Source: Candidatus Niyogibacteria bacterium
GTDB lineage: Bacteria > Patescibacteriota > Minisyncoccia > JACROR01
Direction: 5' to 3'
Assembly (NCBI GenBank): GCA_016186495.1
Contig: JACPLO010000001.1
Location: 11,907 to 75,906, forward strand
Length of the DNA: 64,000 nt
How positions within the stretch are numbered: the stretch's first letter is position 1; each line of letters starts with the position of its first letter. The notes beneath the pieces were generated by a model, which did no database searches, was not told where the DNA came from, and saw nothing but the letters and a program-made list of their open reading frames with translations. Positions 5,727 to 12,875 of this stretch are shown here, piece by piece. The position numbers and the translations under genes were made by a program.

Positions 5727-5755
5727 TTGACAGTTAAATTTGACAGTTATAAAAA
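5727..5755 (+). promoter_or_regulatory. candidate promoter with duplicated TTGACAGTTA box upstream of 5791 gene pair
   Basis: Direct repeat TTGACAGTTA at 5727-5736 and 5740-5749 (13-bp period); TATAAAAAT at 5748-5756; strong SD AAGGAGGT at 5779-5786 before ATG 5791. Confidence 0.35.
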
Positions 5756-5790
5756 TGGCAATTATGCCTTAAATAATAAGGAGGTAAGCA

Positions 5791-6303
5791 ATGCGACAGT
5801 ATGAATTGGAAGATGTAAAGGCTTATACAAGATCATTTTTAGGTGTGATATGTGTCGGTTTTCTGTTTATTTTGTTTAGTCTTATTTTTAGATTGATATT
5901 TGTCAATTTCGTTGACAACTATGAAATTGGTTATAGATATGAGACTTTTGGTGAGAATGCTGGCAAGGTTTCGGCACTTTCCAGAACAGGTTATTTCATT
6001 ACTTGGCCATTCAAAACTAAAATTCACACAATTGACGGACGCCCAATGCAGGTTTGTATCAGTTCAATCAACCGCGTACTGAATTGCAAATTAGTCCAGT
6101 TTAATCCAAAGGGGGTTGACCTATTTATTTCTTGGCATGGGCGCGGCAATTACGATAATGTAAGCACAACTCATGGACCGTCGCTATTAAATCAGATCCT
6201 TATGGCTTATGCTTATGAGGGTAGCGGCAAGGAGTATCCGTTTCTTACTATTATCCGCGAGTTGAAACCATCTGAAATTCAAATTCAGGAGGTCAAAAAG
6301 TGA
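5791..6303 (+). CDS. hypothetical membrane-anchored protein (paralog A of tandem pair)
   Basis: 170 aa, N-terminal TM helix, strong RBS; shares motif block (PMQVCISS..RVLNCKLVQFN) with downstream ORF. Confidence 0.5.
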   Translation: MRQYELEDVKAYTRSFLGVICVGFLFILFSLIFRLIFVNFVDNYEIGYRYETFGENAGKVSALSRTGYFITWPFKTKIHTIDGRPMQVCISSINRVLNCKLVQFNPKGVDLFISWHGRGNYDNVSTTHGPSLLNQILMAYAYEGSGKEYPFLTIIRELKPSEIQIQEVKK

Positions 6304-6743
6304 AGAAATTGCGTGTCGCTGGGATTACTTGCTTGGCGGCGTTAGTTCTTTTTTGGCTTATCTGCGTTCATTATGCAGAAGTAAACCAGTTGGGCATCCG
6401 CTGGAATTTCGTTACCGGCGAAATAAGCGCAGATATTCATAAAGGAATTAATGTAACGCCGCCTTGGGTTCTTGTCTCTCTTATTAACACGCACCCAATG
6501 AGGGTGTGTGTTACAACCTCCGGAAGAGGATTTAACTGCCGCCTAATTCAGTTTCAATCGAAATATTACCGCGAATTTGTTGAAACTGAAGGTTTCCGTT
6601 ATTGGTGGTGGGCAAATCGTATTTCTTTCAATTTTGGATATTCCGAGGAGTATCGAGGAATGAAAGATCTCTTGCGAGGATATTCTTATGGTGTCAAACA
6701 ATATTCGTTTGTAAAAACTTTGAAAGAATATCAAGAAGAATAA
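6300..6743 (+). CDS. hypothetical membrane-anchored protein (paralog B), GTG start overlapping upstream stop
   Basis: 147 aa, N-terminal signal/TM; GTGA start-stop overlap; motif PMRVCVTTSGRGFNCRLIQFQ matches paralog A. Confidence 0.5.
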   Translation: MKKLRVAGITCLAALVLFWLICVHYAEVNQLGIRWNFVTGEISADIHKGINVTPPWVLVSLINTHPMRVCVTTSGRGFNCRLIQFQSKYYREFVETEGFRYWWWANRISFNFGYSEEYRGMKDLLRGYSYGVKQYSFVKTLKEYQEE

Positions 6744-6748
6744 ATATG

Positions 6749-6790
6749 AGCCTGGATTCGCTAACGCGACGCTCCAGGCTTTTTTATTTT
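6749..6790 (+). terminator. intrinsic terminator
   Basis: AGCCTGGA...TCCAGGCT stem followed by TTTTTATTTT. Confidence 0.6.
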
Positions 6791-6934
6791 ATGCTAAAAG
6801 TAACTATTGATTAAACTGAATTTTTATTTTAATATCTCAATCAGTAATCGCGCGCTTAAAATGCGCGTTTCAGCAAATTTAAAAACAATGGATTATCCAT
6901 TTATAAGGAAGAAAAAAATGAAAGGAGGAATAAA

Positions 6935-8035
6935 ATGATTCTGCCCTATCAGCATTTAATCAGCGCGGTGGACGGCAAAAAGCCGATAGTTTTAGCCGAG
7001 CCGAAGATTTTAAAAAAACAAATTCAAGCGGCGACGATTGACTGCCGTTTGGGAGAAAGAATTTTTCGGATAAGCACTTCAATGATTCCCCAATCAAATG
7101 AAAAAATCAGCGAGCTTATCAAGAAATATTGCATTTACGATTTTAAAATAAAAGAAGGCTCGGTTTTAGAGCCGAACGCCTGTTACCTTATTCCTTTAAG
7201 GGAAGAATTAAAGCTTCCGAAAGAGTTCTTCGCCGTGTTCAGCCCGAAAAGTTCAAGCGGCCGGGTGGATACTTTCATCAGAGTTTTAAGCGATAATTTT
7301 TCCAGATACGATATTGTTTCTTATGGCTATCAGGGAAAACTTTATCTGGAAATTATTCCGCTTTCCTTTCTTATCGGGATTGCGCCCGCCATTGAATTAG
7401 TTCAATTAAGGATCAAGAGCAGAGACAGTTTTCTTTCAAATGAAGAATTGCGTTTGGCGCACGTCAAACACGGCTTGGTTTATTCGAATAATGGAGAATT
7501 ATTAGATGCTGACGAAATAGTTTTGCAGAGTGGAAGCGTTCAGTTCAGCATTGATCTTAGCGGAAGGGAAATCGTGGGGTTTAAAGCAAAAAGAAATCCC
7601 ACTGATAAAATTGATCTTTTCCGCAAGAATTATTATGAAGCGGAAAATTTTTGGATTCCCATTCAAAGGCCGAAAAATCGCGAATTAGTTCTGACGCCCG
7701 GCGATTTTTATCTTTTAACGACAAAAGAAAAGATAAAAATCCCGCCGGAGTACGCCGCGGAAATTATGGTGTACGATGTTACTGCCGGGGAATTACGGAC
7801 TCATTACGCGGGATTTTTTGATCCCGGCTTTGGGGGAGAATTTGGCACAAACGTGGTTTTGGAGGTCAGGGCAAGGGACGTTCCTTTTCGGCTTTTTGAC
7901 GGCCAGCCGATTTGCCGGATGGTTTTTGAAAAAATGCTGGAAACGCCGGAAAAAATTTATGGAGAAGGATTTGGTTCCCATTATACCGGCAGCGGGCCTT
8001 CTTTAAGCAAGCATTTTAAAAAAGCATGGCGGTAA
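6935..8035 (+). CDS. long-form dCTP deaminase-like protein (tandem dUTPase-fold domains)
   Basis: 366 aa; C-terminal half has dCTP deaminase motifs (SIDLSG, HYAGFFDPGFGGE, VVLEV), N-terminal half a degenerate copy (ATIDCRLGE, SPKSSSGRVD). Confidence 0.6.
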   Translation: MILPYQHLISAVDGKKPIVLAEPKILKKQIQAATIDCRLGERIFRISTSMIPQSNEKISELIKKYCIYDFKIKEGSVLEPNACYLIPLREELKLPKEFFAVFSPKSSSGRVDTFIRVLSDNFSRYDIVSYGYQGKLYLEIIPLSFLIGIAPAIELVQLRIKSRDSFLSNEELRLAHVKHGLVYSNNGELLDADEIVLQSGSVQFSIDLSGREIVGFKAKRNPTDKIDLFRKNYYEAENFWIPIQRPKNRELVLTPGDFYLLTTKEKIKIPPEYAAEIMVYDVTAGELRTHYAGFFDPGFGGEFGTNVVLEVRARDVPFRLFDGQPICRMVFEKMLETPEKIYGEGFGSHYTGSGPSLSKHFKKAWR

Positions 8036-8149: not shown

Positions 8150-10327
8150 ATGTCCAGAAAAAAATCACTTAAAGATCAAAATCAAAAATGGCATCACGTT
8201 TTAGAGCCGGAAACCAAACGTTCCATTTGGGCGATTATTTTTTTTGCCGTTGCCCTTGTTTTTACTTTGGCGGCCTTTGGAAAAGCGGGATTGGTCGGCG
8301 GGACGCTTTATGCCCTTTTTAACACTTTTTTTGGCGAGGCCTTTTTTTTGATTCCGGTTGTTTTTATTCTGATGGCTTTTTCTTTTCTTTTTGCTTTAAA
8401 AGATAAAATTCTGGCGGCCACGATTATCGGCGCTGTTTTATTCCTTTTAAGCTCTTTAGGCCTGACGGAAGCGATTTTTGGCGAAAAAACCGGCGGCTAT
8501 GTCGGATTTTTAACCGCTTATCCTTTACAGAAACTTTTTGATTTTTGGGCGGCGCTGATAATTTTTTCCTCTTTGATTATCGTTTCTCTTTTAATGATGT
8601 TGAATGTTCCTTTACGCTTATCGTGGATTTGGCGGCGCGCTAAAGAAGAAAAAGAAGAAGAACTGAAAATCAATCAGATTTATCTTGAAGGATCAACGCC
8701 GATTAAAAAAGAAACAAGCGAGATTTCCAAGCCGGAGATAATGACAGCCGAGAAAGAAAAAATAAAAGAAGATTCTAAAACAGGCTGGCTGCCCAAATTC
8801 AGCTGGCGTTTGGCTAAGAAATCCGACCTTGCTTCACTTTCGCAGATTCCGCTTGAACTTTTAGAAGGAGACCGCGGTAAGCCGGCGGGCGGGGATATTA
8901 AAGCCAATTCCAATATCATTAAGCGGACTCTTCAGAATTTTGGCATTGATGTGGAGATGGGCGAAGTAAGCATCGGCCCTTCCATTACTCAATATAGCCT
9001 TCGGCCGGCGGAAGGAATGAAGCTTTCCAAAATTCTGGCTTTGCAGAATGATTTAGCTTTGGCTTTGGCGGCCCATCCGATAAGAATTGAAGCTCCGATT
9101 CCGGGAAAATCTTTGGTCGGGATTGAAATTCCAAACCGAGCAATCGCGACCGTCGGCCTTAAAAATCTTTTATCAACGGAAGAATGGCGGAATTCTTTAA
9201 CTTCGCTTTTTCTGGCGCTGGGCCGAAATGTTTCCGGCCATCCCATTTACGCTGATTTGGCTAAAATGCCCCATCTTTTAATCGCCGGTTCAACCGGAGC
9301 GGGAAAATCAGTGTTTCTTCATTCTTTAATTATTAATCTTCTTTACCAGAATAATCCGGACCAATTGAAGTTTTTGCTGATTGATCCTAAAAGAGTGGAA
9401 TTGCCGGCTTACGAAGACATTCCCCATCTTTTATCGCCGGTTATTATTGACGCCAAAAAGGCGATTTTGGCTTTGCGCTGGGCGGCCAAAGAAATGGAAC
9501 GGCGCTACGATATTTTATCTTCGCATAAAATGCGCGACATCGCTTCTTATCATGAAAAAATAAGCGGCGATGAAAAAGCGGATTTTTTGCCTTTTATCGT
9601 GATTGTCATTGATGAATTGGCGGATATTATGGCGGCTTATCCGCGGGAGTTGGAATCGGCCATTGTCCGGCTGGCGCAGATGTCCAGAGCAGTCGGGATT
9701 CATTTGATTATTTCCACTCAACGGCCGGAAGTTTCCGTGATTACCGGATTGATTAAAGCTAATATTCCCACGCGGATTGCCCTTCGCGCCGCTTCGCAAA
9801 CAGACTCGCGCACTATTCTGGATGCCGCGGGAGCGGAAAAACTTTTAGGAAACGGCGATATGCTTTATCTTTCCGGCGACGCCTCAAAGCCGGTTCGCGT
9901 TCAGGGTGTTTTCGTGACCGCGAAAGAAGTAAAAAGAGTGGTGGAATACCTCAAAAAAGAATACGAGGATTTCGGTGAAGAAAAAGAAGTGAATTTTGAA
10001 AATAATAAGGTTAAGGATGTTTCGGCTGTTTTTGATGAATTGAAACCGATTTCTATTTTTGATGAGATGGAAGATGAGAAAGAAGAAGACGAGCTTTATG
10101 AACAGGCGCGGGAAATAGTGGTTCAGGCAAAACGAGCTTCCACTTCTTATCTTCAGCGCCGCCTGCGGCTCGGTTACGCGCGCGCCGCCCGTTTAATGGA
10201 TGTTTTGGAAGAAAAAGGAGTGGTTGGTCCGGCTGACGGCGCCAAACCAAGGGAAGTGCTGATAAAAAATACTTCATCCGATGCCGAAAGCGACAATCAA
10301 AAGCTGTTAAATGAATTCAAAAATTAG
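8150..10327 (+). CDS. ftsK: DNA translocase FtsK/SpoIIIE
   Basis: 725 aa; N-terminal TM segments, Walker A GSTGAGKS, FtsK motor motifs (IDELADIM, LIISTQRPEVSVITGLIKANIPTRIAL), C-terminal gamma winged-helix. Confidence 0.9.
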   Translation: MSRKKSLKDQNQKWHHVLEPETKRSIWAIIFFAVALVFTLAAFGKAGLVGGTLYALFNTFFGEAFFLIPVVFILMAFSFLFALKDKILAATIIGAVLFLLSSLGLTEAIFGEKTGGYVGFLTAYPLQKLFDFWAALIIFSSLIIVSLLMMLNVPLRLSWIWRRAKEEKEEELKINQIYLEGSTPIKKETSEISKPEIMTAEKEKIKEDSKTGWLPKFSWRLAKKSDLASLSQIPLELLEGDRGKPAGGDIKANSNIIKRTLQNFGIDVEMGEVSIGPSITQYSLRPAEGMKLSKILALQNDLALALAAHPIRIEAPIPGKSLVGIEIPNRAIATVGLKNLLSTEEWRNSLTSLFLALGRNVSGHPIYADLAKMPHLLIAGSTGAGKSVFLHSLIINLLYQNNPDQLKFLLIDPKRVELPAYEDIPHLLSPVIIDAKKAILALRWAAKEMERRYDILSSHKMRDIASYHEKISGDEKADFLPFIVIVIDELADIMAAYPRELESAIVRLAQMSRAVGIHLIISTQRPEVSVITGLIKANIPTRIALRAASQTDSRTILDAAGAEKLLGNGDMLYLSGDASKPVRVQGVFVTAKEVKRVVEYLKKEYEDFGEEKEVNFENNKVKDVSAVFDELKPISIFDEMEDEKEEDELYEQAREIVVQAKRASTSYLQRRLRLGYARAARLMDVLEEKGVVGPADGAKPREVLIKNTSSDAESDNQKLLNEFKN

Positions 10328-10646
10328 AAACACAGTTATTTTTTCCCTTTGGCTGATTTTCGCCGCCTATTTTTTTTATGAGGCTCGGGATTTATTTTTC
10401 GGTTTTTCGGCGGAAATTTTTTATCCAAAAGAAGGAATGTTTCTTGAGAATTCTGAATTAACGGTGGCGGGAAAGGTTAAGAACGCTTCTTATATTTTTT
10501 TGAACGGCCGCCGCATTTTTACCGATGAAAAAGGTTTTTTTAAAGAAAATTTTATAATGGCGACGGGCGTTAACGCCATCTCGTTGAAAGCGGAGAATAA
10601 GTACGGCCGAATTATTGGCGATCGGCGATTGATTGTGGTAAAATAA
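10311..10646 (+). CDS. hypothetical small membrane protein
   Basis: 111 aa, single N-terminal TM; overlaps ftsK stop; no known motif. Confidence 0.4.
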   Translation: MNSKIRNTVIFSLWLIFAAYFFYEARDLFFGFSAEIFYPKEGMFLENSELTVAGKVKNASYIFLNGRRIFTDEKGFFKENFIMATGVNAISLKAENKYGRIIGDRRLIVVK

Positions 10647-12374: not shown

Positions 12375-12875
12375 TTAGCCTAAAATTTCTTCTAATTTTT
12401 TATCCAATTCTTCTTCTTTGACTTCTTCTTTCTTTTCCGTTCTTTTTTCTGTTGGCGCCGGTTTTCTGATTATCCGTTTTTTAGAAATTTTACTTGATTC
12501 TTTCGGTATTTTAGACAACGAAAATCGTGTTATTTCTTCTATTTTTTTGAAACGTTCTTTTAATCCCGCTGTTTCTTCCGGCTTGATCATAAATTTAAAC
12601 CAACCCCGGCCTCCTTCCGTTATTTTGTTTATTTTATAAGCCAGCCGGCTGATTTGGGGCGGTTTTTCTCCGATAATGATTCCTTTTTGTTCCAGAATTA
12701 GATTTCTGACGGTTTCCAGTGTTTTTATAACTGCGTTTTCTTCCAGGCCAGCTTTGATAATATAAAAAAATTCGTAAAATCTCGGCTCTAAAGGAAGCTT
12801 AAATTCATCCTCAGCGATTGGCTGAATTTCTTCTTCAGTATTAATTTCCGCGATTGCGTTTTCCATTATTCCCAT
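12375..12875 (-). CDS. rpsF: 30S ribosomal protein S6 with N- and C-terminal extensions
   Basis: S6 core (RFYEFFYIIKAG...ISRLAYKINK...GWFKFM) flanked by ~35-aa N-extension and K/E-rich tail; operon position upstream of ssb. Confidence 0.75.
   Translation of the reverse strand: MGIMENAIAEINTEEEIQPIAEDEFKLPLEPRFYEFFYIIKAGLEENAVIKTLETVRNLILEQKGIIIGEKPPQISRLAYKINKITEGGRGWFKFMIKPEETAGLKERFKKIEEITRFSLSKIPKESSKISKKRIIRKPAPTEKRTEKKEEVKEEELDKKLEEILG

Follow-up and report, generated by a model that had tools for sequence, protein, structure and literature searches.

A translationally coupled pair of small membrane-anchored proteins with a predicted minimal SPFH/Band 7 core in Patescibacteria and huge phages

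We analyzed a 64,000-nucleotide (nt) stretch of contig JACPLO010000001.1 (assembly GCA_016186495.1) from a Candidatus Niyogibacteria bacterium, a member of the candidate phyla radiation (CPR; Patescibacteria); this stretch is referred to throughout as the window. The element in question is a pair of adjacent open reading frames (ORFs), ORF1 and ORF2, which an earlier note, made from the sequence alone, had described as small, membrane-anchored paralogues of unassigned family, possibly acquired and located at the cell surface. Based on predicted structures, we conclude that both proteins carry a strongly diverged and shortened SPFH/Band 7 core, recognizable by fold and not by any curated sequence model. 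The pair and its features are as follows (AF2, AlphaFold2; aa, amino acids; TM, transmembrane; KD, Kyte-Doolittle hydropathy).

5727-5736 and 5740-5749, + strand: tandem TTGACAGTTA boxes in a promoter-like region, each with the consensus -35 hexamer TTGACA
5779-5784, + strand: Shine-Dalgarno sequence AGGAGG of ORF1, 6 nt 5' of the ATG, read from the sequence
5791-6303, + strand: ORF1 (A1 family), ATG start, 170 aa; predicted short cytoplasmic tail, one TM helix, and an SPFH-like ectodomain
5848-5904, + strand: predicted TM signal-anchor of ORF1, aa 20-38, KD 2.76; the AF2 helix (aa 2-37) continues into the first strand
6040-6102, + strand: conserved block of ORF1, RPMQVCISSINRVLNCKLVQF, with C89 and C99 (C-x9-C) on two adjacent strands
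6287-6292, + strand: Shine-Dalgarno sequence AGGAGG of ORF2, within the end of ORF1 and 7 nt 5' of the GTG, read from the sequence
6300-6303, + strand: GTGA start/stop overlap of ORF1 and ORF2 (translational coupling), seen in the ORF list and the sequence
6300-6743, + strand: ORF2 (A2 family), GTG start, 147 aa; N-terminal MKKLR, one TM helix, and a predicted SPFH-like ectodomain
6315-6371, + strand: predicted TM signal-anchor of ORF2, aa 6-24, KD 2.36, with the N-terminal flank MKKLR; AF2 helix aa 2-22
6492-6554, + strand: conserved block of ORF2, HPMRVCVTTSGRGFNCRLIQF, with C70 and C80 (C-x9-C) in nearly invariant columns
6748-6790, + strand: intrinsic terminator, a GC-rich hairpin followed by UUUUUUAUUUU, 5 nt after the ORF2 stop codon

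Both ORFs, their GTGA overlap, and the N-terminal TM segment of each, all of which the earlier note had reported, are real according to the ORF list, the sequence, and hydrophobicity. Because they have their own promoter-like boxes, Shine-Dalgarno sites, and terminator, ORF1 and ORF2 form a stand-alone bicistronic unit. The two proteins aligned at 25% identity in BLASTP (E = 2e-12), and profile-profile comparison of the A1 and A2 families with hhalign gave a probability of 99.8% (E = 6e-29) over 138 columns. By these sequence comparisons, they are true paralogues, far beyond chance, as had been proposed. The Cys-containing block that they were said to share is also real, although its ORF1 version had been misquoted as HPMQ...; ORF1 reads GRPMQVCISSINRVLNCKLVQFNPKG (GRPMQVCISS...), and ORF2 reads THPMRVCVTTSGRGFNCRLIQFQSKY.

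AF2 models built with the family alignments were confident, reaching a predicted local distance difference test (pLDDT) score of 93.4 and a predicted template modeling (pTM) score of 0.80 for ORF1, and 86.7 and 0.75, respectively, for ORF2. Each model starts with a long N-terminal helix that leads without a break into a mostly beta domain containing two or three helices, and the alpha/beta fold found directly after the membrane anchor is that of SPFH proteins. A C-terminal helix was modeled in ORF1 (aa 160-169) and none in ORF2. The SPFH/Band 7 fold is that of prohibitin, HflK/HflC, erlin, stomatin, and flotillin, and the fold comparison gave the following pairs of values for known proteins, the measure and the two columns being unlabeled.

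Prohibitin-1: 7.6 and 7.4
HflC: 7.1 and 7.4
Erlin-2: 6.9 and 7.3
Flotillin-1: 6.8 and 4.9
HflK: 6.8 and 7.1
Stomatin: 5.9 / 5.5 and 5.8 / 5.6
QmcA: 4.5 and 5.8
Major vault protein: 4.9 and 4.2
First other hit: 4.1 and 2.9

A fold search, which the earlier note had recommended and which was run here on the models, led to the same superfamily: in a Foldseek comparison of the ORF1 model with BFVD (viral predictions), all named proteins among the top ~24 matches were Band 7/SPFH. Band_7 was also the commonest sub-threshold Pfam match within the family (19 of 120 members, best E = 0.0066; the next family matched 4). ORF1 itself scored 13.2 bits against Band_7 (PF01145; cut-off 23.6 bits, E = 0.093), and ORF2 had no match to it. 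We take these sub-threshold matches as suggestive and not as membership by sequence. Searches of Pfam and PHROGs yielded sub-threshold matches only. NCBIfam had no match for either protein, including its HflK/HflC models, and no Band_7, HflK, or HflC hidden Markov model reached threshold. In PADLOC-DB, 0 families matched at E ≤1 (query proteins were the window pair, a megaphage pair, and two single-copy phage-type members, all discussed below), and a PDB sequence search with both family profiles returned chance-level matches (E 0.5-0.9). The A1 profile retrieved only 216 proteins at E ≤1e-3 from 1.84 billion representatives, and among the 150 matches listed none was longer than 255 aa. As judged from these searches, A1/A2 is a small, isolated, and well-conserved family. 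The earlier view that the pair could not be assigned to a known family thus stands for the sequence libraries, none of which covers it, and falls at the level of fold, where homology to SPFH/Band 7 was found. The coiled coils CC1 and CC2 and the C-terminal cap are absent, as the chains end ~130 residues after the TM helix. The pair is best filed as a minimal, uncharacterized variant within the SPFH superfamily, limited, as far as seen, to Patescibacteria and huge phages. We found nothing relevant in the literature linking SPFH proteins with Patescibacteria or CPR bacteria, and the pair is not mentioned in the searchable literature.

The placement of these domains relative to the membrane was predicted from charge distribution. 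Lys and Arg were more numerous on the N-terminal than on the C-terminal side of the TM helix in 84 A1 sequences (vs 7 with the reverse) and in 85 A2 sequences (vs 3). This positive-inside bias predicts an N-in/C-out (type II) topology, in which the SPFH-like domain would lie outside the cell, with a cytoplasmic tail of median length 18 residues in A1 vs 4 in A2. Neither protein contains a lipobox, which rules out a lipoprotein reading. A cleaved signal peptide was likewise ruled out, given that family-conserved residues follow directly after the TM segment and that the helix continues into the first strand.

The conserved block adds a second line of evidence for an external location. In the A1 family, R84, P85, and Q87 are invariant and C89 and C99 nearly invariant, and the ORF1 model places strands 86-92 and 95-104 around the Cys pair. 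The matching strands of the ORF2 model are 67-72 and 78-85; paired as a hairpin, they would bring C70 and C80 face to face. Codon 65 of ORF2 (6492-6494) encodes His, whereas Arg (R65 of the R-P-x-R-V-C motif) is nearly invariant at this position in the family. Both cysteines are present in 117 A1 sequences, neither in 3, and only one in 0; the corresponding counts for A2 are 111, 9, and 0, and all four cysteines are lost together in two genomes. Such an all-or-none pattern, together with an outside topology, is what a structural disulfide predicts, and it suggests an external disulfide within each C-x9-C pair. Given the charge bias and the covariation of the two cysteines, the ectodomains are probably surface-exposed, in agreement with the secreted or surface location that had been put forward.

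A further conserved element is the ORF2 loop WWANRISFN.GY.EEYRG, which is rich in invariant residues (W103, N106, R107, S109, N111, G113, R119, G120, R126, and G127) and was modeled at a pLDDT of 61-71. This loop is the best candidate binding site. A rival reading of the pair is that the SPFH-like fold has been reused for a CPR-specific role in the envelope that has nothing to do with organizing membrane microdomains, such as binding, anchoring, or sensing peptidoglycan, the S-layer, or pili, or forming a FliL-like collar on an ion-driven stator-type complex. An invariant aromatic and Arg-rich loop of low pLDDT is typical of a site that becomes ordered on a partner, the proteins are unusually conserved, and the coiled coils needed for canonical cages are missing; in addition, FliL is a case of a short SPFH-like ectodomain that serves a specific machine. 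However, no conserved neighboring gene points to any machine, and no carbohydrate- or wall-binding family was detected in the Pfam and NCBIfam scans. Hence, we regard such an envelope role as conceivable but doubtful.

Comparison across genomes indicated that the pair is not particular to this bacterium. Proteins 100% identical to ORF1 and ORF2 are annotated as hypothetical in a Candidatus Niyogibacteria metagenome-assembled genome. Homologs formed 304 (ORF1) and 203 (ORF2) clusters at 90% identity, all unnamed and without Pfam domains, with sources named as Azam-, Giovannoni-, and Magasanik-bacteria and “Patescibacteria group.” Scanning one genome per GTDB species gave 35 loci, the titles of which include Morani-, Uhr-, Kaiser-, Nomura-, Doudna-, and Falkow-bacteria and Paceibacterota, although some of these bins are doubtfully named. 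Identity to the window ORF1 ranged from 32% to 62% among cellular CPR loci. A check of synteny, as the earlier note had advised, showed that the order and coupling of the pair are kept and that its neighbors differ between lineages. Wherever a genome locus had room to show the order, A2 came directly after A1 (33/33); of 40 loci, 33 have a 4-nt [A/G/T]TGA overlap at the junction, and 2 others have TAATG. No third conserved gene was found beside the pair in 37 loci. In Azambacteria, for example, it lies with RNR/AIPR/ComEC; another lineage has L28 and the S12-S7-EF-G cluster around it, and Magasanikbacteria have glycosyltransferases, RecJ, and LepA. Many CPR lineages carry the pair as a fixed module in one copy, with the same order and coupling, and the module is old and widespread in Patescibacteria.

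Two other observations were made on these sequences. One 170-aa protein (P0299) has an A1-like N-terminal half (VENYELGYKF...RPMQVCLNANRRVLNCKLVQF) and an A2-like C-terminal half (YYWWANRISYNLGHKEEYRGMRDILRGY), and scored 148 bits with the A1 profile and 165 bits with that of A2. This apparent chimera may have arisen by recombination or may stand between the two paralogues as an intermediate. In ~20 loci (within L001-L041), long antisense “shadow” ORFs lie opposite A1 and A2; we rejected these as separate genes, as they reflect conservation of the sense genes.

The pair also occurs in viruses. A tblastn match identified a complete A1+A2 pair with an ATGA overlap in the 636-kb LR756504.1 (L054, 4974-6040), which has been called a megaphage (PMC9723777). 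Five IMG/VR contigs of 163-500 kb (3300028558_000016, 3300001336_000001, 3300017917_001524, 3300014720_000015, and 3300049988_000286; L049-L053, pair at ~5830-7013) carry A1 and A2 in the same order, and the huge-phage genes mostly overlap or abut. In three of these loci (L049-L051), the neighbors are NAMPT (phrog_448, 608 bits), RNA ligase, Thg1, MetRS, an R2K ATP-grasp protein, and TnpB, which is a huge-phage gene repertoire. The TnpB/Cas12f-like gene of L050 (7848-9137; OrfB_IS605 and TNB domains) lies ~850 nt downstream of the pair. Viral copies are 43%-52% identical to the window ORF1, inside the range of cellular CPR loci, and no gene besides the pair was common to viral and cellular loci. 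Because the same pair occurs in huge phages, the two-gene module has at some point passed between cells and viruses and been exchanged with huge phages. The direction is left unsettled by bootstrapping of a concatenated neighbor-joining tree, in which the five viral copies were monophyletic in 29/100 replicates and a viral lineage was basal in 39/100. A nested viral clade in an earlier single-gene neighbor-joining tree is not to be relied on.

Viral and phage-like copies vary in their cysteines. The A2-type proteins of L050, L051, and L052 (also P0378 and P0380) have four cysteines in the hairpin (C-x2-C-x-C-x4-C, e.g., CLDCGCKNISC), a sequence pattern that suggests two disulfides or a metal site, and the megaphage A2 has Ser at both Cys positions. 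A third, single-copy group scored about equally against the A1 and A2 profiles and mostly lacks the Cys pair. Its members include L042 6001-6555, L044 1546-2037, and L046 8001-8504 (P0368, P0373, and P0382) and about 15 others, and they lie on phage-like contigs, one of them of 199 kb with strong PHROG neighbors (PurA, HU, topoisomerase, and kinase). This group may represent a homo-oligomeric or ancestral form.

These viral copies raise the possibility that the pair is a phage-host conflict cassette and not a housekeeping scaffold, i.e., a mobile surface module shared by huge phages and CPR bacteria and used for superinfection exclusion, receptor masking, or control of a host protease. HflK/HflC is known to influence lambda lysogeny through FtsH. 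Complete pairs on six viral contigs, typical phage auxiliary genes beside three of them, and the Cys-poor single-copy group on phage-like contigs would all fit such a cassette, as would the facts that the pair alone is common to viral and cellular loci, that its genomic position changes among CPR genomes, and that ORF1 has an atypical codon choice (see below). It would then be a minimal, disulfide-stapled, coiled-coil-free SPFH ring, with the Cys-poor single-copy phage forms as its homo-oligomeric version. Nonetheless, neither PADLOC nor PHROGs offered a family match. In the window, the pair sits amid housekeeping genes with normal third-position G+C content (GC3), and in distant lineages it lies loosely near LeuRS, YchF, RecA, and SSB. 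Each locus has a single copy, no integrase or transposase adjoins it in the window, and its high conservation (45%-60% identity across CPR lineages) is unlike that of fast-evolving conflict genes. Since the tree does not settle the direction of transfer either, we judge a conflict role, including the ring form just described, to be unlikely.

Composition was examined because the earlier note had seen signs of acquisition in a preference for A/T-ending codons. Window-wide counts cover 64 kb, and gene-level comparisons are among its 53 ORFs. Codons GCG, CCG, and CGG are indeed rarer in the pair (2/11, 3/9, and 0/19, respectively) than in the flanks (0.45, 0.62, and 0.23), although the counts are small. 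GC3 was 0.37 for ORF1 and 0.38 for ORF2 vs 0.43-0.48 in five flanking genes, but lies within one standard deviation of the window ORFs (mean 0.398, standard deviation 0.043) and is therefore not unusual; a compositional island was ruled out on GC and GC3. ORF1 has the second most atypical synonymous codon choice in the window (z = -4.9) and ORF2 the ninth (z = -1.6), again from small counts; CCA, GCA, GGT, and CTA are overrepresented, whereas CGG and GCC are lacking (ORF1 has no CGG). Expression level or an old transfer are possible sources of the atypical choice in ORF1. In two distant lineages, the pair lies near LeuRS and YchF (L033) or SSB and RecA (L025), genes that are also near it in the window. 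Given this shared setting and the normal GC3, recent acquisition is not supported; an older one retains the codon choice of ORF1 and the huge-phage copies in its favor.

The same evidence bears on the suggestion that the two genes were acquired recently and encode a toxin/immunity-like or adhesin-like pair that is secreted or lies at the surface. They are small, coupled, membrane-anchored, and without a family assignment, and they use fewer GCG, CCG, and CGG codons than the flanking genes. However, they are mutual paralogues with the same scaffold fold, which toxin/immunity pairs are not, and at 147-170 aa they lack the repeats or long extended domains of adhesins. Their distribution is fixed, single-copy, and lineage-wide, their GC3 is normal, and neither has a lipobox or a cleavable signal peptide. 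The earlier note had itself named homology to a characterized family, or conservation across relatives, as what would count against this reading; both were found, and the exotic interpretation therefore fails on its own terms. We consider it largely refuted and very improbable.

Gene order in the window is glmS-pair-dcd-ftsK, which corrects the previously described glmS-ftsK interval, and the neighbors are LeuRS, TrmB, GlmS, DCD, FtsK, and RecA. No polymorphic, mobile, or defense-like flanking genes were found in the window. The duplicated box and consensus Shine-Dalgarno sequence that had been noted upstream were recovered: TTGACAGTTA occurs twice, and AGGAGG lies 6 nt before the ATG. A DNA pattern search found exactly 2 matches of this 10-mer in the window vs 0.06 expected, and a promoter scan upstream of the pair gave TTGACA-18-AAAAAT (10/12). 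Many relatives have one TTGACA and a -10-like box 5' of the pair, the duplication being found only in this genome, where it has a 13-nt period; relatives often have a 60-130 nt leader before the pair. The duplicated boxes could be two alternative -35 elements or an operator. The terminator after ORF2 folded at -20.8 kcal/mol (z = -5.05; 0/200 shuffles as good). A simple terminator scanner missed this hairpin because its loop is long, whereas folding recovered it. The same scanner called a terminator inside ORF2, which was unconvincing.

Some other features of the window were recorded. The gene after the pair (6935-8035), between it and ftsK, encodes a long two-domain dCTP deaminase (DCD_N and DCD_C, 366 aa). 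A 111-aa ORF with an N-terminal hydrophobic segment (10311-10646) overlaps the end of ftsK by 17 nt and has a Glucodextran_B-like match just below threshold (25.9 bits, cut-off 27 bits). A low-complexity extension is suggested for the ribosomal protein S6 gene (12375-12875, - strand), which is long (166 aa) and whose third-position composition is more extreme than that of any other gene in the window (A3 0.50, GC3 0.31). A change in GC skew near 12 kb merely tracks the coding strand.

Taken together, the reading that we favor, with moderate confidence, is that the pair forms a heteromeric, HflK/HflC-like but cage-less membrane scaffold. In this proposal, A1 and A2 would be two paralogous type II single-pass proteins with outward-facing ectodomains, each stapled by a disulfide across the C-x9-C beta-hairpin. 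Their coupling and obligate pairing suggest that they are made in equal amounts, and also that they assemble into a hetero-oligomer. A1 and A2 would alternate on the outer side of the cytoplasmic membrane, in the manner of HflK/HflC, PHB1/PHB2, and erlin-1/2; the SPFH family has repeatedly evolved such paralogue heteromers. Without CC1 and CC2 the proteins could not close a dome, and the assembly may instead form open rings or arcs, as FliL does. Its role might be to corral a partner in the membrane or to modulate it; candidates include proteases such as FtsH, transporters, and pilus or envelope machines.

Several points weigh against this scaffold. By analogy with known cages, the helices that drive SPFH assembly are the coiled coils, which are absent here, so oligomerization is itself a prediction. 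In sequence space, the A1 profile showed no connection to canonical Band 7 proteins. No partner gene was found in any neighborhood: NfeD was absent from the annotated neighborhoods, with no SPFH-NfeD operon of the stomatin/QmcA-YbbJ type, and FtsH was absent from all neighborhoods examined, although linkage to it is not required in known systems. The atypical synonymous codon use of ORF1 is not accounted for, and the invariant-rich ORF2 loop, as modeled, may point to a particular ligand or partner, for which a generic scaffold offers no explanation.

SPFH proteins are universal membrane organizers, and to our knowledge the recently solved SPFH cages all depend on long coiled coils. If the scaffold reading is true, the pair would be a natural “core-only” SPFH heteropair present across much of Patescibacteria and absent from Pfam, NCBIfam, PHROGs, and PADLOC; if A1/A2 is still able to assemble, it would reveal how little an SPFH ring requires in order to form. 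The reading gives a name and a testable hypothesis to a conserved “hypothetical” membrane pair of CPR bacteria, the envelope biology of which is barely known. The megaphage copies make the pair a useful marker for genes passing between huge phages and CPR-like hosts, and they may help to tell which hosts those phages infect. The pair resolves no long-standing question, and the fold itself is well known.

Among the closest known systems is HflK/HflC (7vhp/7vhq), the bacterial SPFH pair that modulates FtsH. Both consist of adjacent paralogous genes for proteins with an N-terminal TM anchor, the first with the longer cytoplasmic tail, and both would place the SPFH domain outside the cytoplasmic membrane, the type II topology of A1/A2 being predicted from sequence. 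E. coli HflK and HflC have 419 and 334 aa, respectively. At 170 and 147 aa, A1 and A2 are less than half as long, leaving no room for CC1/CC2 or a cap and hence for a closed cage. In contrast to HflK/HflC, they have a conserved Cys pair, and no linkage to FtsH was seen. No NCBIfam HflK/HflC equivalog matched, and because A1 and A2 are nearest each other, with a duplication internal to the A1/A2 family, they are not orthologues of HflK and HflC. Viral Band 7/SPFH proteins (Caudovirales and giant viruses, in BFVD) were the top Foldseek matches of the ORF1 model, and viruses commonly carry SPFH proteins. These are mostly canonical single-gene products of ~260-330 aa, so named in UniProt, whereas the phage copies of the A1/A2 family, be they the A1+A2 pair or the single-copy form, are short and match no PHROG.

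In PHB1/PHB2 and erlin-1/2 (9o9z, 9o9u), an N-terminal TM segment stands directly before the SPFH1-SPFH2 core, as in A1/A2. Paralogues alternate in one assembly in these complexes, and solved SPFH complexes have a TM-SPFH1-SPFH2-CC1-CC2-C-terminal architecture (PMC12624060). Prohibitins and erlins continue into CC1 (~100 residues in erlin), CC2, and a dome-sealing C-terminal region, whereas A1/A2 end after the SPFH core, in which the helical part of SPFH2 is reduced (two to three helices in the AF2 models); sequence identity to prohibitin and erlin is 6%-14%. FliL (6ahp; structure of H. pylori FliL-C) differs in being a single gene of flagellar operons, whereas A1/A2 is a heteropair with no motility genes nearby. 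No FliL profile matched the pair, no FliL-like structure was its best match, and no flagellar context was found. In size and build, however, FliL resembles A1/A2: it is a small, single-TM protein with a short periplasmic SPFH-like domain that lacks coiled coils and still forms rings (PMC8794807). By this analogy, FliL is the best functional precedent for a cage-less SPFH scaffold.

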